From IMG/VR virus record IMGVR_UViG_3300011977_000001: a DNA stretch of 64,000 bases; one strand, given 5' to 3'. This stretch comes from a virus. Positions 1 through 37,659 of this stretch are shown in pieces. The position numbers and the translations under genes were made by a program. The notes under the pieces were generated by a model. It searched no databases. It was not told the origin of the DNA and saw only the letters and a program-made list of their open reading frames with translations. Numbering within the stretch: the first letter of the stretch is position 1; the number at the start of each line of letters is the position of its first letter.

Positions 1-71
1 ACTAAAAGCGCCATCATGCAGAAAGTCCACCGGGCAGTCATTTTTTGAAATTTTATTCGATCGTTTTTCAT
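1..71 (-). CDS. N-terminal fragment of a hypothetical protein running off the left edge
   Basis: ATG at 69-71 sits behind a GAGAGGGGAAAG purine-rich RBS-like run. It reads MKNDRIKFQKMTARWTFCMMALL.. to the window edge (hydrophobic, TM/signal-like). It is truncated, so it is absent from the ORF track. Confidence 0.3.
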   Translation of the reverse strand, partial: MKNDRIKFQKMTARWTFCMMALL

Positions 72-169
72 CGCTTTCCCCTCTCGGCTCAAGCCTTCTG
101 CTCTTGTTTCCTATTCTCAGAGCCGGGAGGACAAAGTACAAGAATCCAGGTGCAAAAGTCTGGACACCA

Positions 170-1300
170 TCACGCACATAATTGATAGAGCTGATACTGG
201 TCCAGCCCGTCTGCACTGTGTTCTTTGCAGAGTATCATTTCTTCATTGACTTTCTTTTCCAGCTGTTTTGAGTCAGTCTTTTTCAGAAGTCCAATAAAGC
301 TCTGATACACCTGCGTACAGTATTCCAGTGTGTACATGCCATGAAGATACCCGTATCGGATACCTGCCAATGATCGTTTAATTCGAAGTGAAGTGGATTT
401 TCTTACATTGATCTGGAACGGTCTGATCTTGAAGCCTACAAACTCACAACCCTGAGCTGCCGGCCTGATACAGGTTTTCTCATTCAGGTCGAGCTGCAGT
501 TCTTCCCTCAGAAAATTGTCAATCAAAGTTTCCCACTGATGCAATTTCTGTTTGCTCTCACTCAGGATGATCACGTCATCCATGTATCGTTCATATAATT
601 TGATTCTCAGCTTCCGCTTGCAATACTGATCAAGCTCATTTAGAAACAGATTTGCGAACATCTGGCTCATCAGGTTCCCAATCGGCATTCCAACTTCAGG
701 AAGCCGGTTCTCCATCGGGACATCCTCTGGCTGCATTCCTCTCGGTAGTCCGAAACACGTGTGTTTGCAATCAATGATACTGAATAGCACACTGAGAAGT
801 CGCTCATCCGCTATGCGCCGTCTGAGAACAGCTTTCAATATTTCATGCGGGATTCTGTAGAAATACTTGCTTATATCAAGTTTGAGATAATATAGGTTCT
901 TACCATCACGGGTTGATTTATCAAGCCACGATTCCAAGCGCAGGATTGCGCTTATCACGCCCCGCCCTGGAATGCAGCCGTAGGAATCATTTATGTATCC
1001 TCGCACAAATATCGGATTCAGCACTTGATATATCGCCCATTGAACGACTCTGTGCTTGAACGCTATCGACATGATGATTCGATATTTCGGTTCATGTATT
1101 TGAAAGATATAATATTTATCAATCTCGTATTCGCCTGAATAAATCTGGTCTCTGAGGTCAGTGACGTTAGTCCAACCATCGTAGTTGAATCTAAGAACAG
1201 GCGGTTCATATCGTCTTCCCCGTGAGGCGTTCTGCAAAGCCTCCCAAAGATTCTCTTTCGAGAATATCTGATCAAAAACGTTCTTTATCTGCTTAGACAC
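170..1300 (-). CDS. DGR reverse transcriptase
   Basis: 376 aa with RT motifs YLKLDISKYFYRIPH, IGNLMSQMFANLFLNELD and catalytic YMDD. The [LIV]GxxxSQ form is typical of DGR RTs, not the group II QGxxxSP form. There is no maturase/endonuclease tail. It lies directly 3' of avd + TR. Confidence 0.9.
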   Translation of the reverse strand: MSKQIKNVFDQIFSKENLWEALQNASRGRRYEPPVLRFNYDGWTNVTDLRDQIYSGEYEIDKYYIFQIHEPKYRIIMSIAFKHRVVQWAIYQVLNPIFVRGYINDSYGCIPGRGVISAILRLESWLDKSTRDGKNLYYLKLDISKYFYRIPHEILKAVLRRRIADERLLSVLFSIIDCKHTCFGLPRGMQPEDVPMENRLPEVGMPIGNLMSQMFANLFLNELDQYCKRKLRIKLYERYMDDVIILSESKQKLHQWETLIDNFLREELQLDLNEKTCIRPAAQGCEFVGFKIRPFQINVRKSTSLRIKRSLAGIRYGYLHGMYTLEYCTQVYQSFIGLLKKTDSKQLEKKVNEEMILCKEHSADGLDQYQLYQLCA

Positions 1301-1540
1301 TTAAATATTCCTATTCGTGCTTAGTGGTTCTCACCATCACTGGTTACTAACGGCTTACACGCTTGCAGCTGTTTTGTTTGTCTCCGCAGCCGCTGGGCTG
1401 TATACGCACACACAGTCCGTCATTTTTCGCATCTTTTCAGCGTGGAAACAGACTCCTTTTCCCCCATCGCACTGAGAAAGAATCCTTAGGCTCTTAATAT
1501 CTGGCTATGCATAGCGTTTCACCATACATCTTGTGTGGGG
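1301..1540 (-). ncRNA. DGR spacer region between TR and RT (expected part of the TR-containing template RNA)
   Basis: 240 nt with no ORF between the TR and the RT start. The position matches the spacer RNA of characterised DGRs. No structure was computed. Confidence 0.4.
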
Positions 1541-1658
1541 TAAAGCCGACCGGAACCCGATGTTGCCGTTCGAGTTCGAGCGAGGGTTGTTCAAGTTGAC
1601 ATAGAACACACCGGCATTGCCCTCATTGTTCCAGTTGCCGCCGCAGTTAGCCACCCGC
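1541..1658 (-). repeat. DGR template repeat (TR)
   Basis: 118 nt aligns without gaps to 2132-2249 (offset 591). All 11 internal mismatches have T on the + strand (A on the coding - strand) in this copy. In the target frame it is rich in Asn AAC/AAT codons. Confidence 0.9.
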
Positions 1659-1678
1659 AATAGCCTGTTCCCTACCGA

Positions 1679-2059
1679 TTATCCTTTTGAAGCCTTTTTC
1701 TTGCTTTCCCACTCCTCCACGATCGTCCGTCTTGCACCCACTAGTCTTCCTATTTCTGTCAAATAGTCGTTCCAGACTTCAAATGTGTGGTGTGAAAAAT
1801 AATGCTCCCTGTCACATATCAGCAGATAATGTTTCAGCTTTGCATTCGCAATGTCCAGGTCTCTCAGGGTAGTCTTCTTAAAATACATTTCATCCGCTTC
1901 AACGGCTCTTTCTAGCATTGTATCCATGCATGATCTCATATCGGATACGATCGTAAACCGTACAGATTTTGGAAATTGGTTGAATGCGTGATACGCATAT
2001 CCCATCATATCCTCAATCTTCAGAAGCGTCTTTTTGTCTTCTTCATTGTTTCTTGCCAT
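1679..2059 (-). CDS. avd: DGR accessory variability determinant (Avd), four-helix-bundle protein
   Basis: 126 aa and basic. Motifs FPKSVRFTIVSDMRS and LDIANAKLKHYLLICDREHYFS...LTEIGRLVG match the Avd / 23S-IVS four-helix-bundle pattern. It sits between target and TR as in the BPP-1 DGR. Confidence 0.85.
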   Translation of the reverse strand: MARNNEEDKKTLLKIEDMMGYAYHAFNQFPKSVRFTIVSDMRSCMDTMLERAVEADEMYFKKTTLRDLDIANAKLKHYLLICDREHYFSHHTFEVWNDYLTEIGRLVGARRTIVEEWESKKKASKG

Positions 2060-2075
2060 AATCGTTTTCTATCCC

Positions 2076-2109
2076 GTGGGGCGGGGCATTCGCTATCGCT
2101 CAGCCCCAC
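2076..2109. other. GC-rich inverted repeat just 3' of the VR / target stop codon
   Basis: GTGGGGC (2076-2082) pairs with GCCCCAC (2103-2109) around a 20-nt loop. It lies between the target stop (2123) and the avd start (2059). Confidence 0.3.
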
Positions 2110-2122
2110 AGGAATCAGGAGC

Positions 2123-3178
2123 TCAGGCAATAAAAGCCGACCGGAACCCGATGCCGCCGTACGAGTTCGAGCGAGGGTCGTTCAAGTAGACAAAGAACAC
2201 ACCGGCAACGCCCTCACTGTTCCAGTCGCCGCCGCAGTCAGCCACCCGCTCGCCCTGGCAGTTCCAGCCATGGTAGTCCCCACCGTAATCCCCGTTAGGT
2301 TCATCCGGATATAGAATCAGCGCTTTGGCCAGCTCAGGAGCTGTAAGCCCACTTTCAATTCCCATTGCTGCGAAAGAAGACCAGTTTGTTACACTTGTAT
2401 CTGGTTTTGCTGTAACGAGTGAATTTGAAGCACCATATTTCAAGGTACCTGCTGTCCCTGGTGTAACCAGTGAACCACTCTTAGAGATTGCTTTCCAAAG
2501 CGTGGAAGAAGATCCAGTATCGCAATCAGCTCCAAGCGCAGCATTGTTATACGGGATGATCTGAATCTCGCCATCAACCAGTCTCAGTCCGGTCTGCCAC
2601 TCCCAGATGTTTCCGTTCAGGTCCTGGATTCCAAATTTCGTATGATCATGTCCCCATGTAGCCGGTCCAGAGCCAGTCAGCACACGATTTATCTTATATG
2701 TATCTCCACTGCCCTCATGAGAGGCTTCCTGACCTTTCTCATACGGGTACGCAGAATCGTGACCGAACTGGTTATTACCATGAGGCATAGTTCCCATCTG
2801 ACGGGTCAGAAGAGCGATTGCAGCCCATTCAGCCTGGCTGGAAAGGTGGAATCCAGCTCCTTTGTTGTCGCAGTAAGTTTTAGCCTGATCATACGTAACA
2901 TATGTAGCCGGGTCTCTCCTGGCCAGGGAATACGCACGTTTGTTGATTACGACATTCTGGTACTTTGAGTAGTAGAAGCAAGGCTTCTCAACTCCGCCAA
3001 CCATGAATGCCGGGTGGACGTTGCTGCTTCCGCCCTTAATCAGCTCAGAATTGAGCATTTTCGGAATCGGTACATAGATTCCAGGCTTGTCCATATCGTC
3101 CATCAGGACAACATTCTCGCCCCCAGACAGTTCAGAGACTGCCGCTGCCATATTGTCATAATTTTCTTTGTAAGCCAT
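2123..3178 (-). CDS. DGR target: tail-fibre / receptor-binding protein with FGE-sulfatase (C-type-lectin fold) C-terminal domain
   Basis: 351 aa. FGE-type motifs are present (GFHLSSQAEWAAIA, GNIWEWQTG). The C-terminus ..CGGDWNSEGVAGVFFVYLNDPRSNSYGGIGFRSAFIA is the usual DGR VR scaffold. It is the last gene of the tail-fibre module. Confidence 0.85.
   Translation of the reverse strand: MAYKENYDNMAAAVSELSGGENVVLMDDMDKPGIYVPIPKMLNSELIKGGSSNVHPAFMVGGVEKPCFYYSKYQNVVINKRAYSLARRDPATYVTYDQAKTYCDNKGAGFHLSSQAEWAAIALLTRQMGTMPHGNNQFGHDSAYPYEKGQEASHEGSGDTYKINRVLTGSGPATWGHDHTKFGIQDLNGNIWEWQTGLRLVDGEIQIIPYNNAALGADCDTGSSSTLWKAISKSGSLVTPGTAGTLKYGASNSLVTAKPDTSVTNWSSFAAMGIESGLTAPELAKALILYPDEPNGDYGGDYHGWNCQGERVADCGGDWNSEGVAGVFFVYLNDPRSNSYGGIGFRSAFIA
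2132..2249 (-). repeat. DGR variable repeat (VR)
   Basis: This covers the last ~39 codons of the target gene. It is identical to the TR except at 11 positions that are all TR adenines on the coding strand, changing 9 codons. Confidence 0.9.
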
Positions 3179-3197
3179 CTGATTCTTTCCCTCCTAG

Positions 3198-3539
3198 TCA
3201 GATTGAGTACAGTTTCAGGGTTACGTTGTCCATGCTGAACGGGACTGCGATTTTCTCCTGAATTACCTTCTGGGAAGTCTCGTCCTCCGGGTCATAGTCC
3301 GGGTTGTCCTTCTCAACCATGTCGTACTGTCTTGCCGGGATCTCGATCTGAGCAACGTACTCTCTCGCCAGGCCGGTGTGAAGAATGCCGTATTCATCGA
3401 TACAAATATCAACTGAAATGTCGTCATCTCTTTCCAACCTTGCCAGGTTGAGTGTGAGCTCGTCATCGCCAAAAGTGATTTTGGTTTTTCTGACCTCGTA
3501 ATCAATCTTTGGTCCTTCATTTACTTCGATTACATTCAT
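3198..3539 (-). CDS. hypothetical tail-fibre-module protein
   Basis: 113-aa ORF tightly packed upstream of the DGR target. No recognisable motif. Confidence 0.6.
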   Translation of the reverse strand: MNVIEVNEGPKIDYEVRKTKITFGDDELTLNLARLERDDDISVDICIDEYGILHTGLAREYVAQIEIPARQYDMVEKDNPDYDPEDETSQKVIQEKIAVPFSMDNVTLKLYSI

Positions 3540-3559
3540 CGAATTTCCCCTTTCCGCCT

Positions 3560-3718
3560 TTATCTCTGGCTTTCGTAAACGGTATTCGTCTTCTGGGCGA
3601 TCTCGTCAGCCATCTCTCTCTGGTGCTGAGTTGCCCGAGACGGGTCAATGCCGTAATTGCGCAGCTCCTGTTCCATCTGCTCTCTGCGCTCATCTGAATA
3701 AATAATTACATTAGCCAT
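3560..3718 (-). CDS. small hypothetical protein (52 aa)
   Basis: Hand-translated as MANVIIYSDERREQMEQELRNYGIDPSRATQHQREMADEIAQKTNTVYESQR. Its ATG overlaps the TGA of the upstream gene (TGATG coupling at 3716-3720). It is below the ORF-track length cutoff. Confidence 0.45.
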   Translation of the reverse strand: MANVIIYSDERREQMEQELRNYGIDPSRATQHQREMADEIAQKTNTVYESQR

Positions 3719-4188
3719 CAGGATGCGTTTCCTCCGTGAACATAGAACTTCACTGTGGCCGAGCTAGCAGAGCCTGTAAACCTTGCCTTGAATCCGTTTA
3801 CCTGCTTGTCGTACACAGCGATGTCGCCGATATTAACGTCTGCAGACTGAATCTCGTAATCCACGATGTAATCCATGGTGTCACGCTTGTTCGTCAGAAC
3901 GATCGTTGTATCGGAATTATTCTGATAGAATCCACCGGTGTTCTTGAGCGTAACGACATGAGTCTCGCCCTTCACATCATTGATGCTTGCTTCGTGGCCG
4001 GTCATGATAGTCGTGAGGTAAGCCAGGAGTTTTGTGTTCGCATCGATTCCGGTTTCCAGGTTGTTGAAATGTTCCTGGTCCATCGGTGTGCCGGTCTGCC
4101 CAATTTCTGGGACATCATCAAGCCAGGTGGTTGGATTGTAATGTTTGTCCCAGTCATTTTCGAGATACGGCTGCTGAATAGTTTCCAT
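3718..4188 (-). CDS. hypothetical tail-fibre-module protein
   Basis: 156-aa ORF with a GAGGAGG RBS upstream. Located in the fibre module. Confidence 0.6.
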   Translation of the reverse strand: METIQQPYLENDWDKHYNPTTWLDDVPEIGQTGTPMDQEHFNNLETGIDANTKLLAYLTTIMTGHEASINDVKGETHVVTLKNTGGFYQNNSDTTIVLTNKRDTMDYIVDYEIQSADVNIGDIAVYDKQVNGFKARFTGSASSATVKFYVHGGNAS

Positions 4189-4231
4189 TCAAGTTTCCTC
4201 CTCTCGTAATTGATAGTTTGCACTATGTAAA

Positions 4232-4247
4232 ATGCACTTCTGTGCGT
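4232..4247 (-). promoter_or_regulatory. copy of the ACGCAC-N-GTGCG palindromic promoter-proximal motif
   Basis: The - sense reads ACGCACAGAAGTGCAT, about 45 nt upstream of the 4188 start. Confidence 0.3.
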
Positions 4248-4275
4248 CTAATAGACATAGAAATGCTTTACACCA

Positions 4276-4584
4276 TCACTGAGTTTCCACGATCGGGAAG
4301 ACGAATTTGTTGACGACTCCCTGCGTTGCTGTACGCTTTGTTGAGATAGTCTGTGAGCCTGCGACATTGCCTCCTACATCGATGATTCGGACCCCGGTGA
4401 TCGTTTCTGTACCGGAACCAATCGGCGGGCAATTAGCCACGATTTCGAGCTGTGAGCCGTTGACCTTCTTTGAGTTGATTGTCGCATCATACCATGAGCC
4501 TCCAACCTGGTATTGAAACTTCACCAGGGAAGCCAGCCAGTGCTCCCTTCTCTTCGCAAGAAAGCTGCTTGACCAGAATTCCAT
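4276..4584 (-). CDS. hypothetical tail/baseplate-module protein
   Basis: 102-aa ORF between the XkdU-like gene and the fibre genes. Confidence 0.55.
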   Translation of the reverse strand: MEFWSSSFLAKRREHWLASLVKFQYQVGGSWYDATINSKKVNGSQLEIVANCPPIGSGTETITGVRIIDVGGNVAGSQTISTKRTATQGVVNKFVFPIVETQ

Positions 4585-4630
4585 CTGTCTTTTCCTCCTT
4601 TACTGGTAATGAGTTGATCTGTCCATTCTG

Positions 4631-5440
4631 TCACTTTGTACCACAGTTTGCTTTGCCGCATACTCTATGCTGGACCACGGCGTTCTGCACCATGAAGTCT
4701 GAATCCGCTTCAGAAGTGACCAAATTTCCAAATGATTGTCTCCCAGGAATCGTGCCTGCTGCAAGCCCTGAAGTCAGTTCGTATGCGTATTCTGCGGCGT
4801 TTTGCTCTTTCAATATGTTTACATCACTCTCACTGCTGCTGCCCAGAATGCTTCGCCATGGCTTTCCGCCTATGAGCTGTGTACCGCTTAGCTTGTACTC
4901 ATAAATTGCTTCCTGTCTGGCTTTTGAGACTTTCACTTTTGTAGTGACCAGTCCCTCAATCTCGAAATCACAGATTGTGTGTGCCGGCTTTGCCATGTTG
5001 ATGAACTTTTCCATCTCGGCCGGCAGGTCTGTATAGTCCGTATGGACCGTAAACCGATTCTTTCCAGTGTTTTCCTCGATCGTTACCTTCGTTCCACCAA
5101 CTGCTGAAAGAATCATCGACACTTTGTACGGGTTAAGTGGAACTTTGAACCGGATTGCAGAGAAGATATTTTTTCGTCTCTGTTCATCTGAAAGAGTTGA
5201 GTTCGTGACGATTCCGTATTCATCTTCGTAATACGGCAGGGACCATGTAGCCGTTGCAATCTGTGACTGAGCGTCAAAGTCGTCCCGGCAGGTATTTGCC
5301 TCGTCCAGAGCCGTTCCGATTGCCTGAAGAAGCCAAAGAAAAACTCTGGCCTCCCCGTAAATCGGACTCATGTAATCGATGATAAGCTGTGCTTCTTCTG
5401 ATGTGAGGATAACCTGCATCAACCTGGTAGGATTCAGCAT
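4631..5440 (-). CDS. baseplate/tail protein, XkdU / DUF2313 (P2 gpI)-like
   Basis: 269 aa directly after the baseplate J-like gene. The LPYYEDEYGI..LSDEQRRKNI region resembles DUF2313. Confidence 0.6.
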   Translation of the reverse strand: MLNPTRLMQVILTSEEAQLIIDYMSPIYGEARVFLWLLQAIGTALDEANTCRDDFDAQSQIATATWSLPYYEDEYGIVTNSTLSDEQRRKNIFSAIRFKVPLNPYKVSMILSAVGGTKVTIEENTGKNRFTVHTDYTDLPAEMEKFINMAKPAHTICDFEIEGLVTTKVKVSKARQEAIYEYKLSGTQLIGGKPWRSILGSSSESDVNILKEQNAAEYAYELTSGLAAGTIPGRQSFGNLVTSEADSDFMVQNAVVQHRVCGKANCGTK

Positions 5441-5446
5441 TTACCA

Positions 5447-6571
5447 TCACCCCCTGGTTTCCGTAAACGTAAGGATCTCGACAATCGGTGACTCATACTT
5501 TGCGATCGGGATATTCTCGGATTTTCCGTTGATCGTCAGCCCAGTAAAGTCGTACACACCAGAAATATCTCCCAGAATGTTTGCAACCTTCTGGTATCGG
5601 ACCTCTCCGTCTGAGATTGCTGTAGGATAATATTGCTGCATAGCATTCGTAAACGCCTTTTCTACGTCTGTAACCGATGTACCATTGAGCTCCAGGGCCG
5701 CTGTTACGGTCAGTTTGACCGGTGTCGGAGGAACTACGTACAGATTAGCGTTGATCGGAGCAAGCCGCTCATACGGGTTGTCAGGGCGCATGATGTAGTT
5801 ATAGACATTCTTGCAGAGCGTATCTGTTGCAGGGGATCCATTACCATCCGTGATAACAATCGTCACCAGGCCAGAGTCGTCAGTCGCCGGGATTATGATC
5901 GCACTTCCTACACCATCGACTTCGTTCGCCCACCTGGTGTAATCGGAAATAGTTCCGGAGTAAGACGTTGTTCTCGACTGGTCAAAGTACAGAATACGCT
6001 CTCTGTAAGCGTCATCTTCCTCTATATCCGTTCCTCCGGTCATCGCCTCATTGTTCGTACAGGTCGTTACACCATCATCTGAATCTTCCACGATGATGAT
6101 CTTCCCTGCTGTACAGTTTCCGACTGTTCCTGTCTCTGCGCACACGACATTGACTTCTACCGTTCCAGTGTCTGGAATCGTATATTCACCATCAGAAGCG
6201 TAAGAAACGCTCGGTATCGTTCCAATTCCCTCAGTCGCAAACAGGTCTCCTTCCAGGATCACCGTTCCCGGATCTCCCGTAATCGTCAGTTTCCCGCTGG
6301 CAGCAGTCGGCTGCTTTCTCGGCAGCCCCCGTGCCTCGCCATGATAGTCCAAGGCTTCTCCTTCTGCGAACTGCGGCCAAATCTGCTGAAAGAGATAATC
6401 CAAGTCGAACTGTTTCATCCGTTCCACTTCTACTGCAGTCGGGTGCAGCAGGTCATATGCGACTGAGCCCTCTGAAACATCAATATCAATAGGCATGTCT
6501 TCAACCATGCGTTTCATAATATCGGTCTCGTCCGCATCCGTAAGCAAGTCCGGAGTTGTGTATTCTTTCAT
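5447..6571 (-). CDS. baseplate J-like protein (XkdT / P2 gpJ-like)
   Basis: 374 aa. Position and overall pattern (N-terminal DLL..DE..I...M, large beta-rich middle) match Baseplate_J proteins of PBSX-like tails. Confidence 0.75.
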   Translation of the reverse strand: MKEYTTPDLLTDADETDIMKRMVEDMPIDIDVSEGSVAYDLLHPTAVEVERMKQFDLDYLFQQIWPQFAEGEALDYHGEARGLPRKQPTAASGKLTITGDPGTVILEGDLFATEGIGTIPSVSYASDGEYTIPDTGTVEVNVVCAETGTVGNCTAGKIIIVEDSDDGVTTCTNNEAMTGGTDIEEDDAYRERILYFDQSRTTSYSGTISDYTRWANEVDGVGSAIIIPATDDSGLVTIVITDGNGSPATDTLCKNVYNYIMRPDNPYERLAPINANLYVVPPTPVKLTVTAALELNGTSVTDVEKAFTNAMQQYYPTAISDGEVRYQKVANILGDISGVYDFTGLTINGKSENIPIAKYESPIVEILTFTETRG

Positions 6572-6572
6572 A

Positions 6573-7163
6573 TCAGCCTCCTAATTCTCCTGCGTCATAC
6601 ACAGTGCTCACATCGATCTTCAGATTCTCAAAGCCTGAGATTTCTGTGGATGCTTCCACCGCATCAGGCGCAATCCAGTTGAAATTGATCGAGTCTACAT
6701 GAGCGGTCCGACCATACGGGTCTGCTTCCAGTGCGCCTTTGATCTCACTTCTCAGGATTTCTTCTGCCTCTGCCCTGGACGTTGCTGAGAAAGCCGCTTC
6801 TACGTCCACTCCCATCTGATCAGAGTAATCGTCACACTGGTATCTTGGGGTCGCCAGAGCCTTTTTACACCAGTTCAGCCAGGCTTCGTCAGGCTCACAG
6901 ATGACAATGTTACCTCCGCCATTGAGAACCAAATCGGTGTCAAATTTGAGGCCAGGAAGGTATGTTGCCTCGTCTGTCGTTGCGGCATTTGCATCGGAGT
7001 TCTCGTCAGCTGCCTCTTCGTCCTCTTCTTCTAGTTCTTCGATTGCGGCTGCATCTTCCTCGTTCGGTCCAGGGATTAGACCATCACCGCTCTGATCGCT
7101 TTCTTCTTCATCTGCGGCATCATCTATCAGCTCTTCATCCAGAGTTTCATCGTCTTCTCCCAC
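6573..7163 (-). CDS. baseplate wedge protein, XkdS / DUF2634-like, with acidic N-terminal tract
   Basis: 196 aa. The C-terminal half (WLNWCKKALATPRYQCDDYSDQMGVDVE...) resembles DUF2634. The N-terminal ~65 aa are D/E-rich. Confidence 0.55.
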   Translation of the reverse strand: MGEDDETLDEELIDDAADEEESDQSGDGLIPGPNEEDAAAIEELEEEDEEAADENSDANAATTDEATYLPGLKFDTDLVLNGGGNIVICEPDEAWLNWCKKALATPRYQCDDYSDQMGVDVEAAFSATSRAEAEEILRSEIKGALEADPYGRTAHVDSINFNWIAPDAVEASTEISGFENLKIDVSTVYDAGELGG

Positions 7164-7200
7164 TGCTGCACCTCCTTTTCTCTATTTACCATCGATTTCC

Positions 7201-7452
7201 TCACAGCTTTGCTACGATCACCGGTTCCCCGGAAGCCCAGCTCACTACGACTCGATTTCCCACTGAGAGTTTGACTCCGGAAGCGGTTGAATAGCCTTTT
7301 CTCGGAATCGTAACCCCCAGTGAATCCATCTTTAGCTTATGACCTGATACTATCACGCCCTGTTCTACGGATACATTGTTGTGGTACGATGCCGTACCAT
7401 GCATCCGCTTTGAAAGAATCTGGGCAAGCCTGGTCGTTCCTTTCGAAACCAT
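7201..7452 (-). CDS. small baseplate protein, XkdR / DUF2577-like
   Basis: 83 aa. GNRVVVSWASGEPVIVAKL at the C-terminus, together with size and position, matches XkdR-type proteins. Confidence 0.55.
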   Translation of the reverse strand: MVSKGTTRLAQILSKRMHGTASYHNNVSVEQGVIVSGHKLKMDSLGVTIPRKGYSTASGVKLSVGNRVVVSWASGEPVIVAKL

Positions 7453-7478
7453 TTTCTTCTCCTTTCCAGCATTTCAGC

Positions 7479-8732
7479 TTATCGATAAAGCACAAATACT
7501 TCGCCAGGATAGATTTTGTCGATATTTCCACCACTCCACTTATTCAATGTTGCAGCATTGTTCCTCTTGAACTTGCTGAAGTCAGCCGTTGTTGGGTAAC
7601 GTCCTAAGAATTTTCTCAGGATCCCTGTTACGGTGTCTCCGCTCTTTACCTTGTATTTGACTCCCTTGCCTTTGTTCGAGTTCTTTTTCTTTGAGGTCTT
7701 TTTGCTAGACTTCTTTGCGGACGGTCCTGTAATTCCTGTTGCACTGCAGGTCTCTATATCCATCTCCTGCTTATCGGCATTGTGTTCTATATCCGTGATG
7801 ATCTGGTATCCGTGGAACGTATCGGTTTTGAGGTATATCCGATCTCCCCTTTTCACCATCGGAATGTCAATGCAGGTGATCGTTCCGGTCTTCTTCGGTT
7901 TCGACTTCTCTTTCAGAATATAATTTGCCTCTTTCGTGGCCTTTTTCTTAGAAGTCTTTTTATCCTTGCTGATTTCATCTTGCAGCCGGCCATAGATTTT
8001 TACATTTTTCTTGACCGTCTTAACGATTTTCGGCTTTCCGCTTTTCGATGCCGGTCCCTGGATAACGACCTGAGTCACGACTTCATCCATCGTGGTTTCC
8101 ATCTCGACTTTTACGGCGTTTTCCTTCTTCTTGATGTTGTAAATTGTGGCATTTGTACCGGTTCCGGTTACATGAAGCGTATTGCCTTTGAAGTAAATTT
8201 CGTACTTCTTCCCGGTCTGCTTCTTTACTTCATCCAAAAAGTCCAGGAAAGTATCTGACAGGCACTTTGACCGGATTGCCCGTTTGTCGTGTTTGATCGA
8301 TTTGTAATTGTAGGAAAGTCCGATTCCCCACTTCTTACACATCTTCTTGAAGATACTCTTTGTCTGTCCGCCCAGATACCATGATGCCTTGCTCTTCTGC
8401 AAATAGATAGCGTAGTCGTAAATCAGAATCTGAAGAACATTTTCATCTGACTCAGATATTTTTACTGTCCATACCAGGCCCCTCATCTTTTCTTTCGGCC
8501 CGGAGCCCACATTGTAATAAACGTAGGCTTTGCAGTTGACTTTGATAATGTCACTTAGATATTTGCTTCCAACCATCAGGTTCACTAGATCCACCTGGCA
8601 CTTCTGAGCGATCTGCTTATCTGGCTGCGCTACACTGCAATTCATCATTGCATTATCGAGCTTGTAGATTCTTCCACCTGACACCACTTTTACGGTGTAT
8701 CGTGGGTCTAACATACTTGCCATCAGGCCCAC
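7479..8732 (-). CDS. baseplate hub-like protein (XkdQ / gpD-like) with C-terminal LysM-like module
   Basis: 417 aa. The C-terminus YKVKSGDTVTGILRKFLG...SGGNIDKIYPGEVFVL is LysM-like. Position follows the XkdP-like gene. Confidence 0.55.
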   Translation of the reverse strand: MGLMASMLDPRYTVKVVSGGRIYKLDNAMMNCSVAQPDKQIAQKCQVDLVNLMVGSKYLSDIIKVNCKAYVYYNVGSGPKEKMRGLVWTVKISESDENVLQILIYDYAIYLQKSKASWYLGGQTKSIFKKMCKKWGIGLSYNYKSIKHDKRAIRSKCLSDTFLDFLDEVKKQTGKKYEIYFKGNTLHVTGTGTNATIYNIKKKENAVKVEMETTMDEVVTQVVIQGPASKSGKPKIVKTVKKNVKIYGRLQDEISKDKKTSKKKATKEANYILKEKSKPKKTGTITCIDIPMVKRGDRIYLKTDTFHGYQIITDIEHNADKQEMDIETCSATGITGPSAKKSSKKTSKKKNSNKGKGVKYKVKSGDTVTGILRKFLGRYPTTADFSKFKRNNAATLNKWSGGNIDKIYPGEVFVLYR

Positions 8733-23965: not shown

Positions 23966-24892
23966 TTACCTCATTGGAACTCGCTTACCCTGCCCTGCGA
24001 TCGAGAACATCTGATATGTTCCGTTCTTTACAAGCTCCCAGGTCCGTGGGTCATCAACTTTGAAGCCTATCCACCATCCAAGCGGCACCGTTCCCTGCGG
24101 GATTCCCATTGCTTTCAACTTCTCGTCCGTAAAGACTACGGACTCGACCAGACGACATTTGTTCTGAAGCATCGGGTTATGTTCCTCTCCGCCCGTATGC
24201 CAGTTCAGAACATATTCATACACAGCCTTTTCGAGTTCCTGCGGGGAAACCATATCTCCCTGAAGATCCAGGACCTGCTCTCCGTTCTTTCGTTCAGAGA
24301 CGTTTGCCCATCCGAATACCAGCTGCTGATCGTCAACAGACTTTTTTACCATGAACTCGGTTTCTTCTGGCTCTTCCTCTTTCTTCGGTTCTTTACCATC
24401 AGACTCATCCGGTTCCTCAGAATCTTCTTCCTCAACTCCATACACAGCCTGCGGAATATCCGCCGAAAGACTCAGCTGCTGTTTCCTGAACGGCAACCCA
24501 GGTTCAACATATCCAAGAGTCATATGCGGTCTGTAGACTTCAAAGTCTCCGACAACATTCATTCCCATATTTCTGAGAATACGGAGAAGTTTTGACCGAA
24601 GTGCTTCGAGCTGCCCCTGCTGCACTCTTGCATAGATCACGTCTTTACCATCGCTGCTCTCAGACGCATCGAATCGCCCAGTTTCATCGAACTGAATCTT
24701 CTCAGGAATGTCATTTGTGACCTCACTGATTGCTTCCTCGACTCTCTTCTCTGCCTCCTCAGTAGTCAGGGTAGTGTTTCTTACCCATCCATAAATCAGA
24801 GTTATGTGGAGGTCATCGGTGTCCTCAGTGTGAGCAATGTCATCCGGGTTATTCAGCACTGTTTTCAATGCGATATAAACTTTCAAATCCAT
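23966..24892 (-). CDS. fusion of a 2H phosphoesterase (LigT-like) domain and an XkdF-like putative prohead serine protease domain
   Basis: 308 aa. There are two H-x-T motifs (LHITLIYG, PHMTLGYV) in the N-terminal half. The C-terminal half (QLVFGWANV...GDMVSPQELEKAVYEY...GWWIGFKVDD..TWELVKNGTYQMFSIAG) resembles XkdF-family proteins. Confidence 0.6.
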   Translation of the reverse strand: MDLKVYIALKTVLNNPDDIAHTEDTDDLHITLIYGWVRNTTLTTEEAEKRVEEAISEVTNDIPEKIQFDETGRFDASESSDGKDVIYARVQQGQLEALRSKLLRILRNMGMNVVGDFEVYRPHMTLGYVEPGLPFRKQQLSLSADIPQAVYGVEEEDSEEPDESDGKEPKKEEEPEETEFMVKKSVDDQQLVFGWANVSERKNGEQVLDLQGDMVSPQELEKAVYEYVLNWHTGGEEHNPMLQNKCRLVESVVFTDEKLKAMGIPQGTVPLGWWIGFKVDDPRTWELVKNGTYQMFSIAGQGKRVPMR

Positions 24893-25013: not shown

Positions 25014-25568
25014 TTACTTAGTCCGTTTCTTTTTAGGTCTTGAATTGCCGCCTCTGAGAATGTCATAGACCTGATTGTTGCGTTTCCATGAATCGTCATA
25101 CTTTCTGCCAGCCTGGCGTGTAGTTGCCGTTGTCCCGGTCTTCTTGTTCTGTCTTCTTACTCTCTTCAGGCGGTTTTTCCTCTCTCTTGCGGACTCAACG
25201 GGTTCGCCAGCCTGTGAAAGATGATGTGTACGGGTGTACTGTCTCTGAGCGTCACCTATTTTCTTCGCATTTTTGCGATGATTCTCGTAGACATCAGTTC
25301 CTTCGGCATCATCGTCTACCCTCGTTCCAACCATGCGTACCCCGCTTCCGAGCTTTCCAGTACGAACAACCTCACGGGCGATTGCTCTGTTATGAGCTTT
25401 GCTTGCTCCCGGCTTATACGTAAATGAAACAGCATTCGGTCCAGTTGAGAAGCGGCCAAGTGCATCGTGGAACGGGTTGAACTTTTCAATATCTTTCTCT
25501 TCAACTGCTTTGAAGTCTGCGTCTTTCGATGCAGTCTTCATAATGTCAAAAAACAGTTCAGCCATCAT
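25014..25568 (-). CDS. YNPYHG-tagged basic protein of unknown function
   Basis: Start chosen at MMAELFFDIMK (25568). Tag variant EKFNPFHDALGRFSTG is at 25449-25484. The C-terminal half is R/K-rich. Confidence 0.6.
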   Translation of the reverse strand: MMAELFFDIMKTASKDADFKAVEEKDIEKFNPFHDALGRFSTGPNAVSFTYKPGASKAHNRAIAREVVRTGKLGSGVRMVGTRVDDDAEGTDVYENHRKNAKKIGDAQRQYTRTHHLSQAGEPVESARERKNRLKRVRRQNKKTGTTATTRQAGRKYDDSWKRNNQVYDILRGGNSRPKKKRTK

Positions 25569-26547
25569 TTTCCCCTTTCTTCTTATTTCCCAGCTCAACC
25601 AGATCTCCCAGGACGGTTGCCAGCTTTTCGTCCTTTTTGAACAGGTCATTGAGCAGTGGAAGCGCCACTTCCACCATCTGTGGATGCGGTGCTCCTGTGG
25701 TTCCTAGTGCCCTCAATTCAAAGAAGTGCCTCCACTCCCTCATGTTTGCAGTCATAACCAGTTCTGTTTTTACAGAAATCGGAAGTACAGACCGAGCCAT
25801 CTGAGGAGTCACGTTTCCACCGATCATTGTTTCGTAAGCGTCTTCTGTGCCTTCGGCAATCTTGTTCCACCAATCTCCTGGCCAGTCATTCTCTGGGAAC
25901 TCGAACGGTTTGACAAATGTCACTCCATTACCATAGTTGCAATACCTTGTGCTTTCCTGGGCGAAAGACGCTTCTCTATGTCTCACAATCTCGTGTGAAA
26001 CTCCCCTGTCGCAGATGAATTTCACGGTGAGGTCGTAATGAACCATCATTTCCCTGGGCGAAAGGTTTTCTTTATCCAGCTCTGTGTATTTTGAGGTGAG
26101 CTTTCCAGCAGTGATCTTGCTGAAATCGATCATGTCAAATATCGGAAAATATTTTTTCTGCTGGAATATCTCGGCTAGGTCCTTTGAAATTCTGCAGTTA
26201 TTTCTGGCGCAGGCTTCGAAGAACTCCAACCATGCCCGCATGTTCCCTGAAACAATGTTTCTTCCGGAATATTCAAAGCTAGTGGCTCTGAGTTTCAGCA
26301 ACTCACCATAGTTCTGCACGAATATCGTGCACAGTCTAGGAACTTCATCCGTCCTGCTTTCCAGGATGATTGATGCATGTTCAAGCATTGCATAGTGCTT
26401 ATGTTTCACCAGGGCTCGTACCATCTTTACGGCTGAGCCCTCTGTGATCCTCTTTTCGGACTTGTAACAAGTCCTCGCTACCTTCTCGATCTTCTTCACC
26501 GGATCCTTCTCGGTGATAATCTCGTGTCCCGCCTTGACTAGCTTCAT
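25558..26547 (-). CDS. thyX: flavin-dependent thymidylate synthase ThyX
   Basis: 329 aa with the ThyX signature RHREASFAQESTRY (RHRxxSxxxxSxRY). Confidence 0.85.
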   Translation of the reverse strand: MKLVKAGHEIITEKDPVKKIEKVARTCYKSEKRITEGSAVKMVRALVKHKHYAMLEHASIILESRTDEVPRLCTIFVQNYGELLKLRATSFEYSGRNIVSGNMRAWLEFFEACARNNCRISKDLAEIFQQKKYFPIFDMIDFSKITAGKLTSKYTELDKENLSPREMMVHYDLTVKFICDRGVSHEIVRHREASFAQESTRYCNYGNGVTFVKPFEFPENDWPGDWWNKIAEGTEDAYETMIGGNVTPQMARSVLPISVKTELVMTANMREWRHFFELRALGTTGAPHPQMVEVALPLLNDLFKKDEKLATVLGDLVELGNKKKGENDG

Positions 26548-27992: not shown

Positions 27993-30900
27993 TCAAGTAA
28001 AAGAATAGCCGAATCTTAATTCATCGAACGATACAGCACAGTCAAAGCTCTTCGATACTCCTGCTGCACCATCAGGACCAGCCTCAACCACGTAAATCGT
28101 TGTCTTTCTCGCTCCGCTCGGCCAGGTCTGTTCTTCTTTGTGAAGTACCGTCCAGGAAGCCTTAGAGCTCGCCATGACCTCTTTTTCTCCGTAGGTAGAT
28201 AAGTGATCGACTGGTGCGGCAGTCCTGTTGTGCAGGCATACAATCATAACAGAATCCTCATCATTTGCGCCTACATGAGCAAAGTTCAGCCCGACTGCTT
28301 TGTCGCTTGACCATGAGCTCATCCTGCCTCGCATATCGATCGTTGCGCCTTTGCCGGCCTTTTTCATGAACTCGTCATAGTCTTCACGCCTGCCGAAATG
28401 TATTCCTCGATACATCGTACCATCAAATGCTGGTGCTCTGTCCAGGTAGACTTCTGCTGCATCCTGGTCGGACTTTCTGAGTGTTTCATCAGCAAAATAC
28501 TTTTCCAGCCCTTTCAGGCTTTTCTCTACTGAACCTCGGTCCAGTCCGGAGTCTTCTTGCATGTGTTTCAGCCTTGCTTCGATGTATCCTTCTCTCTCCC
28601 CTTCTTTTATGATACTGATCTGCCCTTTTGTCGGCTTTGTTGGCCGATAATCCCCATTTTGCTGAAGCAACTGGAAGCCATCGTCCAGAACATCTTTCAT
28701 TTTCCCAGAGTTGAATGCCTCTATACAGTCATCTTCAGAAATAAAGCCGTTGTCGATTGCATACAGAGCCTGATCAGAATCATCTCCATCGTCAAGCTGT
28801 TTCCGTACTTCTTTCAGGTGATTCCACCAGGAAGAGGACCCGGCCTCAGCTTTTGCTTTGATCTTCATTTCACCATGAGAGTTGCTTGTGTGCTGCTTAG
28901 TAGTCTTTCCTGTATGAGCTTTTCCTTTTCCTGGCTTGTAGTTGATGACTAAGGCGGCAGCGGTTCCGGTCGTAAATTTCCCGTCCTTACCGTGATACGG
29001 ATTATACTTTTCAATAGCACTCTTCTCGACTTCTTTACCATCACTGTATGACGGCCAGAAGCCGAACTCATTCAGACTATCGCCGGCGAACTGAATCTCT
29101 TTAGCTTTAACTTTGAATGCATGTACTGGGACGTTTTCATATCTTCCTTCTCCTTTTGCATAAGTTCTTGACAGTGATACCCAGTCGCCCTCATTCAGCT
29201 CGTCCTTCGGGCTTGCCCTATACACAGTCACTTCTGCATCTGGGCTATCTTTGATCTTCCGCAGCGCAACCATCGATTCACGCAGCTCCGGTCCGTCAAG
29301 AGAATACCAGTCCGGGTGTTCCCAGAAATCATCTGGAATCGCACCTTTCTCGGTTATGTCAAACGCTCTTCCTGACCTGCTCGGCCTGTGCTGAAGCGCA
29401 TAATCCAGCTCCCCGCTCGGGTTATGCCTGTGTATTCTCTGGTCCGAATCGGGTTCTGATTTTGCTGCTTTCTTTCTCGGAACTGTAGATTTTGCGTTGC
29501 CTCCGGTTGTGAATTTACCATCAGCTCCGTGATAAGGGTTGTATTTGTCTATTCTCTCTACCCCTAACATTTTCAAAACGGTATCATCCTGCAGACCATT
29601 CGCTGACTTACCGATGCCATCATCAGGGCCAGTCTCTACTACATAGATATATGTTTTTCTCGCTCCTTGATATTCAGTTGTTTCTGAGTACATTACCGTC
29701 CATCTTGCAGTTGAGCTTGCAAGAATCTCTTGTTCTCCCTGGCTGCTAATATGTGCGACCGGTGTTGATGTTCTGTTCTTTACGCACTGTATTACGACTG
29801 AATCCGCTTTTGAGTCTACTGCGTGCGCAAATCCTCTGGCTATTTCTTCTAAGCTGGTCCATGAGCTAGGTTCGTCACGCATTCCAATCGTGCTTCCAGG
29901 CTTAACATGGGACATAAATTCGTCATACTGCTTGCTTCCCTTATCCCAGGCTATTCCTCGGTATGATATGCCATCAAACGCTGGAGATTTTGATACAAAA
30001 TCATCGATCACATCACGGTCTTCTTCGTAGTAGGATCCTCCAAAATATTTTTTCAGTTTCTGGTAGTATTCCTCTGCTTTGTTCCTGTCTACTCCCGTAT
30101 CTTCGCAGATATGTCTTAGCCTGGCTTCATCCCATCCAACTTTTGAGGCTTCTGCTGAAATGCTAGTCTGTCCTTTAGTCGGTTTTGTTGGGCGATAATC
30201 TCCATTTTTTTCGAGAATATTGAAGCCAGTGTCTAATAGCTCATCTGCAGTTCCTTCCTGCATAGCTTTTATACAGTCTGTTTGTGATGCGAAGTAATGT
30301 TTCTTTGCATACAGGGCTTTTTTGTTTTCTTTTTCTCCTCTTAGTTTGTCTCGCTCATTTTTTATATGATCGAACCACTCATTATTATGAGACTCATTCT
30401 CTCTTGAAATATCATTTTCATGCGTTTCACTGGTATGCGAAATATTACTTACCATCGAAGCGGCCATTTCCTTTTGGCTTGTCTTAAATGGAACAGTTGT
30501 CTTAGCATTTCCACCAGTCGTAAATTTCCCGTCTTTCCCGTGGTAGGGATTATATTTGACGATCTCTTCCAGGCTATTCATTCCAAGAAGTTTTGCGGTC
30601 GAATCATCAAATCCGAGCATCTTGGCAACTTTTACCATGGGTTCCGACTTCTCAATGCTCCCGTCTTCCTTTGTGACATAAAGGACCGGTATCTTGTCGA
30701 GTCCCAGGTTGTATGCAGCCATCGCACGATGTCTCCCCTCCTGGCCTCCGTTGCCTTCTCCGACATTCAGATACGGCATATCCATTTCCGTTCCGTTTTC
30801 CATCTTTCCAGCCAAGTTCTCAATGTTCTTCTTATCCAAACCCAGCACCTGGCTAAGGGCTGTTGTGGTTCCTTCCCCTGTTTCTTTCCCTGTGTTGAAG

Positions 30901-33131: not shown

Positions 33132-33235
33132 ATGCTTGCTCCTTTCTGTGCGTCCACCTGCCTTAACTTTATGCATTAGTACGTTTTTCATAAAGGATTC
33201 AGGTCACATTCAACGGGGTACGCATTTGACAGAGC

Positions 33236-37440: not shown

Positions 37441-37659
37441 TCTTTACCTGTTCTTGGTAAAAGGCTATGCTGTTATGGATGCTGTGGATTAGTATTTGTT
37501 TCCTACCACCAGATGGTTTCAGAAAGGGTCTGACCACAGCCTCCTGCTACTTTGTTGATCAGTCAGATACCGCATGACGGTTTATGTGGAACGAGGATAC
37601 GAAAGCAGCGAGTCCTTGTGGGTCCAACAGCATCAAATAATCTTACGGAGGTGATCTCT
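37441..37659 (+). ncRNA. candidate IS110 5' non-coding end / bridge-RNA region
   Basis: About 220 nt non-coding stretch directly upstream of the recombinase ATG, the position where IS110-group elements encode their guide (bridge) RNA. No fold was computed. Confidence 0.3.

Follow-up and report, generated by a model that had tools for sequence, protein, structure and literature searches.

Evidence for a complete, active BPP-1-type diversity-generating retroelement in a contractile-tailed phage

Introduction

The diversity-generating retroelement (DGR) of Bordetella phage BPP-1 is arranged as mtd-avd-TR-brt, and adenine-specific transfer from TR to VR alters the C-terminus of a CLec-fold protein. 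Retrohoming in BPP-1 needs a GC-rich stem with a 4-nt GRNA loop, located 4-34 bp from VR (PMC3240598), and the element carries an imperfect IMH/IMH* repeat. The 140-nt BPP-1 spacer is RT-10 (PMC5737381). It pairs over a long range with a region upstream of TR; a hairpin and adenosines come next, and directly after TR a further stem encloses a stem-loop (bioRxiv 10.1101/2023.10.23.563531). The roles of the catalytic and template-contacting residues of the BPP-1 reverse transcriptase (RT), bRT, as used below, are those given in the same preprint.

Three other described systems bear on the present locus. Faecalibacterium phage FP_Lagaffe, for which DGR activity (VR hypervariability) was shown experimentally (Cornuault et al. 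2018, PMC5883640), has the same cassette block as Clostridium phage Saumur, Dulem virus 37, and Bacillus phage BalMu-1. TaqVP, the variable protein of a Thermus aquaticus prophage DGR, is a single-domain monomer (5VF4; PMC6328139). Members of the Rfam family RT-14 (RF02921; Weinberg et al. 2017, PMC5737381) are encoded on the same strand as RT, in the interval separating it from TR, and the family model spans only the first ~145 nt and leaves an AAAGGAG..UUUCC block unpaired.

Here we describe a DGR within a viral window, the whole 64-kb stretch of DNA that was analyzed (IMG/VR record IMGVR_UViG_3300011977_000001). We are highly confident that it is a complete, currently active element of the BPP-1 type in a contractile-tailed phage.

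Results

The cassette was found in the order target-avd-TR-RT, with all of its parts on the (-) strand, as originally predicted and with the gene order and strand of BPP-1. The RT gene (170-1300) encodes a 376-residue protein matching PF00078 and PHROG 1423 (E 2.9e-119). Its best solved relative by phmmer is bRT (8ub7; E 1.4e-38), a remote similarity in two aligned stretches, and the best group II intron RT reaches 3.9e-17. The sequences IGNLMSQ (207-213) and YMDD (239-242) correspond to the [LIV]GxxxSQ and YxDD motifs of DGR-clade RTs and argue for the DGR-type enzyme that had been proposed; IGNLMSQ is invariant in five related phage RTs. Residues F66, R74, and I76 of bRT are retained, catalytic D142 corresponds to bRT D138, and I207, G208, and Q213 correspond to bRT I181, G182, and Q187. 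The Y239-M-D-D sequence is also conserved.

The possibility was considered that the RT is an unrelated group II intron or retron enzyme lying near an ordinary duplication, or near recombining tail-protein alleles shaped by point mutation and selection. The best NCBIfam RT model is that of a group II intron RT/maturase, at 108 bits and far under its 300-bit cutoff, and no DGR RT model appeared among the NCBIfam matches. The retron models likewise scored far under their cutoffs, and no intron RNA domain or retron msr/msd gave an Rfam match in positions 1-4000 at E<=1. A group II intron or retron identity was rejected on these grounds. The closer similarity to bRT, the SQ motif, and the adjacent Avd also speak against it.

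This adjacent gene is avd (accessory variability determinant; 1679-2059). Its 126-residue product scores 63.7 bits against PF22296 bAvd, above the 40-bit cutoff, and matches PHROG 3206 'Avd protein of DGR' (E 4e-25), in agreement with the earlier identification. Its score against NCBIfam NF033474 DivGenRetAVD, 71 bits, is under the 80-bit cutoff, and no solved-structure relative was matched by sequence. The locus thus has an Avd adjoining TR and RT, as expected of a DGR.

Direct ungapped comparison aligned a 117-nt TR (1542-1658) with a 117-nt VR (2133-2249) at an offset of 591, from 1542/2133 through 1658/2249, and the homology ends abruptly on either side. The gapless match at this offset had been claimed originally, and the repeat proper starts at 1542/2133. 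A twelfth T/A difference at 1541/2132 marks the repeat boundary, because the same base is present there in all five natural VRs described below. The 11 internal mismatches fall at TR positions 1563, 1564, 1570, 1588, 1597, 1602, 1617, 1618, 1626, 1636, and 1648, exactly as listed before. The TR base at each is T as read on the + strand, which corresponds to A on the coding strand; in VR it is replaced by C or A. As only 25 of the 117 TR positions are T on the + strand, the hypergeometric probability of 11/11 mismatches on T is 5e-9. This restriction of the differences to TR adenines, in a pair within the range of about 100-135 bp, is that of a DGR.

VR occupies codons 311-349 of the target gene, with the stop codon two codons later, and TR is outside any gene. 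Nine codons are altered from TR to VR (N314D, N318D, N321S, N324V, Y329F, N331Y, N334D, N340Y, and N342G); these are the changes first reported, in reverse order when read in the target frame. The 25 TR adenines fall in 14 codons. Eleven of these are AAY (AAC or AAT), as is characteristic of DGRs, and no adenine substitution in TR can produce a stop codon. The final 19 nt of the repeat (TCGGGTTCCGGTCGGCTTT) are GC-rich, adenine-free, and common to TR and VR. A second VR was not found in the whole window when both strands were scanned with TR adenine positions ignored.

Natural variants were then compared. Exact copies of the RT protein were indexed in 128 blocks of a public collection, from which 24 contigs were read and four distinct places were fetched. 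In these four metagenome contigs (L001-L004), the RT and TR are identical to those of the window and VR is different in each, which gives five VRs in all. The VR substitutions comprise 63 at TR adenines and 3 elsewhere, the latter all in the VR of L001, and 25/25 adenine sites were changed. Over 7300 positions, the L002 contig and the window disagree at 16, every one within VR; the other three contigs have 3-8 differences outside VR and 16-21 inside. Natural variants therefore differ almost solely at TR-adenine positions, the pattern that the original prediction had anticipated for populations. Clustering at 90% identity gave 62 distinct target sequences, compared with 8 for the RT (one on 95 contigs) and 4 for Avd (one on 117 contigs). 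Among 14 full-length target variants, with a truncated and frameshifted fifteenth sequence left out, residues 1-313 show no difference other than Q/M127, and the variants otherwise differ only in the TR adenine codons. Of the 84 fetched loci of related phages and IMG/VR records (L005-L088), 66 likewise contain a TR and VR that differ with an adenine bias. Diversification is unidirectional, with TR invariant and VR varying among near-identical genomes, and the element is active in nature.

These data bear on two alternatives. Duplication with ordinary mutation and selection would have to account for 63/66 natural substitutions at TR adenines, the p value of 5e-9 in the window, and a TR that never varies while lying outside genes, and we consider it very improbable. 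The locus could also be a decayed DGR in which the genes and the TR/VR pair remain, mutagenic retrohoming has ended, and the 11 differences are relics. Past and present activity look the same in one genome, and nothing specific was found in support of decay. Against it stand the five different VRs accompanied by an identical RT protein and TR, the otherwise complete identity of L002 with the window over 7.3 kb, the excess of target variants over those of RT and Avd, and the intact catalytic residues of the RT. Assembly chimeras of unrelated strains could mimic such variation, but the near-identical flanks speak against them. We regard a fossil element as very unlikely, and the variation is best read as the product of an active DGR.

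The phage is a gut or rumen phage whose host probably belongs to the Lachnospiraceae or related Clostridia, a Gram-positive anaerobe lineage unlike the host of BPP-1. A near-identical prophage was not found among GTDB species genomes, and there was no nucleotide-level match to GenBank phages. Beyond the contigs carrying exact copies, the nearest RT among IMG/VR and genomes is 62% identical.

The target, or variable protein, gene (2123-3178) encodes 351 residues. The product matches PF03781 FGE-sulfatase at 34.4 bits (cutoff 23.3) and aligns with TaqVP (PDB 5vf4) across residues 8-350 (11-384 of TaqVP) at E 1e-62. It is accordingly predicted to be a CLec-fold protein of the FGE subtype, TaqVP/Mtd-like, with VR at its C-terminus as in BPP-1 and other DGR variable proteins, in keeping with the claim that VR forms the last 39 codons of such a protein. 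TaqVP shares the C-terminal VR with its GGxW...AG(V/L)...PR...G(F/A)R framework, is longer by ~30 residues in the stretch that separates the conserved core from VR, and comes from a different organism and environment. Its structure is solved, whereas the window protein is known from sequence, and surface exposure of the variable residues is predicted by homology to it.

The baseplate/tail module ends with the target gene both in this window and in four isolated phages. Genes for a sheath, tape measure, YqbQ, baseplate J, and a Mu gp48-like protein identify a contractile Xkd/PBSX-type tail, so the PBSX-like myovirus proposed originally was upheld, and the phage differs from BPP-1 in this respect. 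Baseplate J, the gp48-like gene, and four small conserved ORFs immediately precede the target gene. FP_Lagaffe, Saumur, Dulem virus 37, and BalMu-1 have the same order of baseplate J, gp48/P2 I-like protein, small ORFs, FGE-fold target, Avd, TR, RT, and lysis genes, with RTs 39-47% and targets 37-43% identical to those of the window. Unlike these phages, the window has a metallopeptidase gene between RT and the lysis genes, and its phage appears larger, since contigs of ~100-106 kb recur, compared with 40-54 kb.

Because the gene closes the baseplate/tail-fiber module, its product most likely binds the host receptor, a role suggested by gene position and homology. The target had been described as a tail-fiber tip; its place at the end of the tail module stands, while the protein resembles single-domain TaqVP, not the tip of a long fiber. 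An active DGR might instead diversify a virion-surface adhesin for mucus or glycans, or a non-structural protein. The 351-residue single-domain target, TaqVP-like (PMC6328139) and unlike that of BPP-1, lacks a recognizable fiber or trimerization domain, and its match to PHROG 2889 (E 1.7e-124) is to a family of 'unknown function'. Other gut-phage DGRs aim at Hoc-like decoration proteins that are not receptor binders (PMC5883640). On the other hand, the gene is at the usual tail-fiber position, its order relative to baseplate J, the gp48-like gene, and the small ORFs is kept in at least those four isolated phages, PHROG 5302 'tail protein' was matched more weakly, and homologues are annotated as Mtd-like or antireceptor. 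We therefore consider a target other than a receptor binder unlikely, though appreciably less so than the alternatives above, and retain receptor binding as the probable role.

The structured, non-coding spacer between TR and RT (1301-1540) is 240 nt long, compared with 140 nt in BPP-1. Its first helices are P1 (1536-1540/1462-1466) and the P1b-P2 stem-loop (1469-1505). In an alignment of 24 loci (A3), 84% of cells are paired as opposed to 40-48% in slid controls, and 149 cells have double changes as opposed to 41-54. Spacer positions 1444-1454 pair with an 11-nt strand just upstream of TR (GGGAACAGGCT; 1662-1672). This long-range duplex is paired in 96% of cells over 28 loci, with compensatory changes at 7 of 11 pairs; in alignment A4, FP_Lagaffe and BalMu-1 form 11/11 pairs, Dulem virus 37 forms 9/11, and Saumur 4/11. 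The P4 hairpin (1428-1442) and an A-run (1423-1427) follow, and then P5 (1394-1419), P6 (1365-1393), and P8 (1321-1350). By topology, the 1662-1672 strand may correspond to the strand that avd contributes to the BPP-1 'cPRT Stop' duplex, and the matching of the other helices to BPP-1 elements is likewise a putative one based on topology. An extra 30-nt hairpin, GUAUGGUG-AAA-CGCUAUGC (1506-1535), interrupts the first spacer stem at its internal loop. This hairpin is lineage-specific: in alignments A3 and A4 no row other than that of the window has it, and it sets the window apart from the FP_Lagaffe group. It is also a helix in the single-sequence fold. A candidate pairing between the TR 3' end (1551-1559) and spacer positions 1351-1359 is 91-93% paired with weak covariation. 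Such a pairing would form a pseudoknot with the long-range duplex, which leaves the RNA model incomplete.

A local search gave a weak full-length match of the spacer to RT-14 (1398-1516; 27.3 bits, E 0.09), so Rfam, whose gathering threshold for the family is 48.1 bits, does not count it as a member. With 70.4 bits the BalMu-1 spacer is a true member, and that of Saumur scores 34.6 bits; the window spacer is homologous to both, with the same covarying helices. It is thus a distant relative of RT-14, unlike the BPP-1 spacer, an RT-10 RNA. It shares with RT-14 its location and strand, the blocks GCCAGA, CAGUGC, AAAGGAG..UUUCC, and GAAAAAUG, and the first multi-part stem. Unlike in the Rfam model, the AAAGGAG..UUUCC block in the window pairs with the sequence upstream of TR.

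A GC-rich hairpin/cruciform, GGGGC-tga-GC[GATA]GC-gaat-GCCCC (2083-2107), is located 25 nt downstream of VR. Sequence reading and a DNA fold indicate a GATA loop of the GRNA tetraloop type, and in stem, loop, and distance the hairpin fits the element required in BPP-1 retrohoming (PMC3240598). Homologous hairpins with GATA, GGTA, or GGCA loops are present in most of a set of >50 related loci. VR thus has the 3' marks of a DGR target site, an IMH-like GC-rich segment and a GRNA hairpin. TR and VR cease to be homologous immediately past this GC-rich segment, where their flanks simply diverge, so an imperfect IMH/IMH* repeat like that of BPP-1 is absent.

In contrast to BPP-1, the VR flank carries four CTG triplets (2124-2126, 2116-2118, 2109-2111, and 2101-2103), 7-8 nt apart, from the VR end to the hairpin, with the last inside the hairpin. 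At least three CTG within 40 nt after VR were found in 47 of 52 related loci (mean in shuffles, 0.8), with a spacing of 7 nt in 84 cases and 8 nt in 43. None of the related loci examined has such an array after TR. The FP_Lagaffe group also has the array and tetraloop hairpin after VR. We suggest the array as a candidate clade-specific IMH-type target mark, which is possibly new and the sole such detail of this element.

Discussion

Nothing found here contradicts the assignment of this locus to the known DGR class, to which it belongs. From its components, the adenine-only differences, the diversification of VR under an invariant TR, and the covarying helices, we infer a priming site, roles for individual RNA helices and the CTG array, and a receptor-binding function as follows. 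A transcript of the avd end, TR, and the 240-nt spacer would fold into the conserved structure and bind an RT-Avd complex. The 11-bp duplex, followed by its hairpin and A-run, would set the far cDNA end, like the BPP-1 'cPRT Stop'. A short duplex between the sequence just after TR and the spacer, enclosing a stem-loop, would position the RNA for self-primed reverse transcription; its topology is that of the BPP-1 template:primer duplex with the Avd-binding stem-loop. The RT would copy TR faithfully except opposite its 25 adenines, and the cDNA would replace the 3'-terminal VR of the target gene, guided by the adenine-free, GC-rich last 19 nt and by the VR-specific flank with its CTG array and GRNA hairpin. 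This is predicted to randomize 14 codons without ever introducing a stop, and could give some 5.5e14 protein variants at most. Judging from homologues, the 14 positions would be on the ligand-binding face of the lectin-fold protein that most likely contacts the host receptor.

Knowledge of how DGRs work is unchanged by this element. For annotation, the region can confidently be labeled an active DGR with each part mapped to the base, and the many 'strain variants' seen for the target gene in metagenomes have been generated by one element; they are not separate lineages. The clade provides dozens of natural, diverged DGRs with a covarying long-range duplex, stem-loops, and VR-flank signals. Cryo-EM has revealed the RNA architecture of the Bordetella phage element, and these Gram-positive gut and rumen phages support it independently by comparison. 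The CTG array is the one new candidate cis element suggested. We propose tentatively, giving the idea somewhat less than even credence, that in this clade of Bacillota-phage DGRs an array of 3-4 CTG marks VR as the recipient and integration site, unlike the IMH/IMH* of BPP-1, and that RT-14 is the spacer RNA whose AAAGGAG..UUUCC block pairs upstream of TR. If so, the array would be a binding or alignment site directing cDNA integration.

A template repeat whose copy differs only at adenines

Direct ungapped comparison at a constant offset of 591 nt showed that positions 1542-1658 of the + strand, the template repeat (TR), are identical to positions 2133-2249, the variable repeat (VR), except at 11 sites. 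The alignment in the original prediction was thereby borne out, and exactly the 11 mismatch positions that it had listed were recovered. At every one of these the TR base is T on the + strand (and so A on the coding - strand), opposite C or A in the VR. As 25 of the 117 TR bases are T, the chance of all 11 mismatches falling on T is 5e-9, in keeping with the adenine-only pattern described earlier. One more T/A difference between the two sides, at 1541/2132, was assigned to the edge of the repeat rather than to a mutated site because the same base is present there in all five natural VRs compared below.

In the frame of the target gene, the changes from TR to VR are N314D, N318D, N321S, N324V, Y329F, N331Y, N334D, N340Y, and N342G, the same set of eight Asn codons and one Tyr codon that had been read previously. 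Adenine occurs in 14 TR codons, comprising 11 AAY codons together with GAG, TAT, and ATC, which gives a coding capacity of approximately 5.5e14 protein variants in which a stop codon is never possible. The repeat ends in an adenine-free stretch of 19 nt (TCGGGTTCCGGTCGGCTTT), which is therefore copied faithfully, and beyond it the flanks of the VR and the TR show no relation to each other. No further copy of the VR or the repeat was found within the 64-kb window, even when the TR adenines were ignored.

Genes of the cassette

The predicted gene order on a single strand was confirmed on the - strand, where the target gene (3178-2123) is followed by avd (2059-1679), the TR (1658-1542), a non-coding spacer of 240 nt, and the gene for the reverse transcriptase (RT, 1300-170). 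Promoter and terminator scans returned nothing above chance.

The RT matched PF00078 and PHROG 1423 (E 2.9e-119). Its best solved relative was bRT, the RT of the diversity-generating retroelement (DGR) of Bordetella phage BPP-1 (8ub7, E 1.4e-38), far ahead of the group II intron RTs (3.9e-17), as would be expected of the DGR enzyme it had been proposed to be. The alignment with bRT is collinear and retains F66, R74, I76, the catalytic Asp (D142, corresponding to bRT D138), and YMDD, as well as I207, G208, and Q213 (bRT I181, G182, and Q187). In a cryo-EM study, bRT residues of this set make contact with the base of the template and with the incoming dNTP (bioRxiv 10.1101/2023.10.23.563531). 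A weak HigB_toxin Pfam match in the RT N-terminus (23.1 bits versus a cutoff of 27) was taken as noise. The 126-aa product of avd matched PF22296 above cutoff and PHROG 3206, upholding its earlier identification as Avd, the accessory protein; it scored slightly under the NCBIfam cutoff and matched none of the solved structures by sequence.

The target protein matched PF03781 (FGE-sulfatase) and is a full-length homologue of PDB 5VF4 (E 1e-62). This entry is TaqVP, a variable protein with a CLec fold from the DGR of a Thermus aquaticus prophage, and its VR, too, is C-terminal (PMC6328139). Judged from sequence matches to TaqVP and bRT, the fold and family of target and RT can be regarded as already fixed. 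The target had been described as the lectin-fold tip of a tail fibre. The lectin fold and the location at the end of the tail module were retained; the protein is instead of the stand-alone TaqVP type, and its gene position and homology make it a candidate receptor-binding protein.

Natural diversification of the VR

In a public assembly collection, 128 blocks are indexed as containing exactly this RT protein, and four contigs (L001-L004), each from another sample, were fetched for comparison of TR and VR. The TR was identical in the window and all four contigs, and the VR was different in each of the four. Across the five VRs there were 63 substitutions at TR adenines (35 to G, 17 to T, and 11 to C) versus three elsewhere, in line with the earlier suggestion to look for population variation confined to TR-adenine positions, and all 25 TR adenine positions were altered in at least one genome. 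The three non-adenine changes are all in the L001 VR (5052-5168), at TR positions 31 (C>A), 38 (G>T), and 97 (C>T), each adjoining mutated adenines, and no such change is present in any other of the five VRs. Of 7300 bases aligned between L002 and the window, 16 differed, and every one of them lies in the VR; in L001, L003, and L004, 16-21 differences fell within the 117 nt of the VR and 3-8 elsewhere.

The same contrast was apparent in clusters formed at 90% identity. The target cluster comprises 62 different sequences, none of them present on more than a few contigs, versus eight members for the RT (one present on 95 contigs) and four for Avd (one present on 117 contigs). In 14 full-length target variants, residues 1-313 were constant except for Q/M127 and variation was limited to the codons with TR adenines; a 15th listed variant, truncated and frameshifted, was left out. 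Outside the VR, Q127/M127 is the sole protein difference that recurs, and it divides the variants in two. Behind it is a pair of neighboring base changes, seen in L001, L003, and L004 at 4501-4502 (window 2799-2800). This pattern of substitution marks retrohoming that is ongoing, runs in one direction, and is specific for adenines.

Phage context, relatives, and host

The window is phage DNA. It encodes a terminase, a Mu-like portal, an XkdF-type protease, a sheath, an 1820-aa tape measure, YqbQ, a protein resembling sheath initiators, baseplate J, and a Mu gp48-like protein, and after these come four small conserved ORFs and the target. The sheath, tape measure, YqbQ, baseplate J, and gp48-like genes support the PBSX-like contractile tail that had been assigned to this phage.

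Several other genes were observed. Directly downstream of the RT and extending beyond the left edge is a gene for a 304-aa Peptidase_M10 (metzincin) protein (window 1-71 on the - strand; L001 7230-8144), followed by three small ORFs and a lysozyme+CHAP endolysin; in related phages, holin and lysis genes instead come directly after the RT. In the - strand segments 23966-24892 and 25558-26547, the XkdF-type prohead protease has a fused N-terminal 2',5'-RNA-ligase/LigT-like phosphoesterase domain, and a ThyX thymidylate synthase with two matched stretches lies nearby. Between the head and packaging genes, also on the - strand, are an ORF of 1732 aa almost without Pfam match (27993-33191), a protein of 582 aa that carries a papain-fold glutamine deamidase toxin domain at its C-terminus (35468-37216), and a Zeta-toxin-like kinase (42547-43476), which are probably the "effector arsenal" mentioned in the original prediction. 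The + strand at 37552-38838, opposite to that of the phage genes around it, encodes an IS110-family transposase (DEDD_Tnp_IS110 and Transposase_20), which probably represents an insertion sequence within the phage genome. Contigs with this element cluster in size at ~60 kb and ~100-106 kb (99964, 101839, 104142, 104322, and 106169-106419), which suggests a phage genome of ~105 kb, exceeding the window and roughly double those of Lagaffe, Saumur, and BalMu-1.

Megablast of window positions 1-8000 against GenBank phages gave no match, nor did the exact TR/VR pattern with wild-carded adenines against IMG/VR. The block baseplate J-target-Avd-TR-RT-lysis genes is common to Clostridium phage Saumur (RT 47% identical to that of the window), Dulem virus 37, Bacillus phage BalMu-1, and Faecalibacterium phage FP_Lagaffe, whose DGR and VR hypervariability are already published (PMC5883640). 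IMG/VR yielded 80 more loci with RTs 43-62% identical, and 66 of these 84 loci (IMG/VR plus the four isolated phages) have an adenine-biased TR/VR pair and share this layout; their spacers are 150-430 nt long. A single-protein RT scan of GTDB species genomes confirmed no relative, and an alignment-based scan found relatives at 62% identity or less only, with no near-identical prophage among these genomes. Because prophages of Roseburia, Acetatifactor, and Blautia were the closest genomic relatives (59-62%), the host is probably a member of the Lachnospiraceae or a related group.

A conserved structure in the spacer RNA

A single-sequence RNA fold of TR plus spacer was no better than shuffles (z = +0.38), and the structure of the spacer emerged only from comparative analysis. 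The Rfam RT-14 model gave a full-length but weak match in the window spacer (1398-1516, - strand; 27.3 bits versus a gathering score of 48.1); for the TR-RT spacers of two relatives its scores were 70.4 bits in BalMu-1 (L007 4331-4474) and 34.6 bits in Saumur (L005 4226-4398). RT-14 was published as an RNA motif near RT genes in elements of unknown type, and of those motifs RT-10 alone was linked to a DGR, namely the one in BPP-1 (PMC5737381). Since it maps to TR-RT spacers, RT-14 appears from these matches to be a DGR spacer RNA.

A structure with eight helices was drawn by hand and tested on 24 aligned spacers from loci with RTs 53-62% identical to that of the window. In this alignment 84% of cells were paired versus 40-48% in slid controls, with 149 double-change cells versus 41-54, and none of 500 shuffles reached the observed values. 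When the alignment was extended upstream (28 loci, including four isolated phages), a long-range duplex was found between a conserved 11 nt just before the TR (1662-1672, GGGAACAGGCT) and 1444-1454 (AGTCTGTTTCC), the most conserved block of the spacer, with 96% pairing and compensatory changes in 7 of 11 pairs. The block AAAGGAG..UUUCC, "unpaired" in RT-14, pairs with sequence upstream of the TR. RNAalifold proposed a local pairing of the invariant GGAG/UUCC block, which was rejected in favor of the covarying upstream duplex.

Directly after duplex strand 1444-1454 come a hairpin (1428-1442) and AAAAA (1423-1427), the same arrangement as the BPP-1 "cPRT Stop", in which a duplex of avd with Sp is followed by a stem-loop and then by adenosines. 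A short covarying stem, P1, joins 1536-1540, just after the TR, with 1462-1466. With the stem-loop enclosed by it (1469-1505), P1 has the same topology as in BPP-1, where the template:primer duplex surrounds the Avd-binding stem-loop. If the analogy with BPP-1 holds, cDNA synthesis would start at about the TR boundary (1541) and stop near the upstream duplex, which would match the observed extent of TR/VR homology. A further RNAalifold pairing, of the TR 3' end (1551-1559, CGGGTTCCG) with spacer 1351-1359 (TGTAAGCCG), was 91-93% paired with mostly one-sided changes; it would make a pseudoknot with the upstream duplex and may be an alternative conformation. The window spacer also has a lineage-specific 30-nt insertion (1506-1535, - strand) in the first spacer stem, where it forms a hairpin of 8 bp closed by an AAA loop; the other 27 aligned spacers lack it.

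A hairpin and a CTG array beside the VR

A GC-rich hairpin with a GATA tetraloop is located at 2083-2107, 25 nt after the VR, and at the same position 57 non-redundant related loci usually have a GC-rich stem capped by GATA, GGTA, or GGCA. Retrohoming in BPP-1 requires a GC-rich stem of 7-10 bp with a 4-nt GRNA loop, 4-34 bp from the VR (PMC3240598), and the window hairpin fits this downstream element in stem, loop, and distance. A DNA fold of the entire VR flank was not significant (z = -1.24); the support for the hairpin is conservation, not folding energy.

Between VR and hairpin, 47 of 52 related loci contain at least three CTG triplets within the first 40 nt after the VR (counted in L005-L088, the related phage and IMG/VR loci), spaced by 7 nt (84 cases) or 8 nt (43), versus an average of 0.8 loci in shuffled sequences. 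None of the loci compared has such an array after the TR. The window has four triplets on the - strand within 2101-2126 (2124-2126, 2116-2118, 2109-2111, and 2101-2103), the first of which overlaps the target stop codon. A limited search of the DGR literature found no mention of the array, which may be the means by which this clade tells VR from TR.

Overall, the element represents a fully intact, textbook DGR of BPP-1/Lagaffe type that is diversifying in nature, and both the observation and the DGR interpretation of the original prediction stand. This kind of system is already well described, as are its layout and its target family; the phage itself has no nucleotide-level match in GenBank phages or IMG/VR. 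Of possible interest to specialists are the array of CTG triplets flanking the VR and the support that comparison across loci lends to a "cPRT Stop"-like duplex in an RT-14-type spacer.
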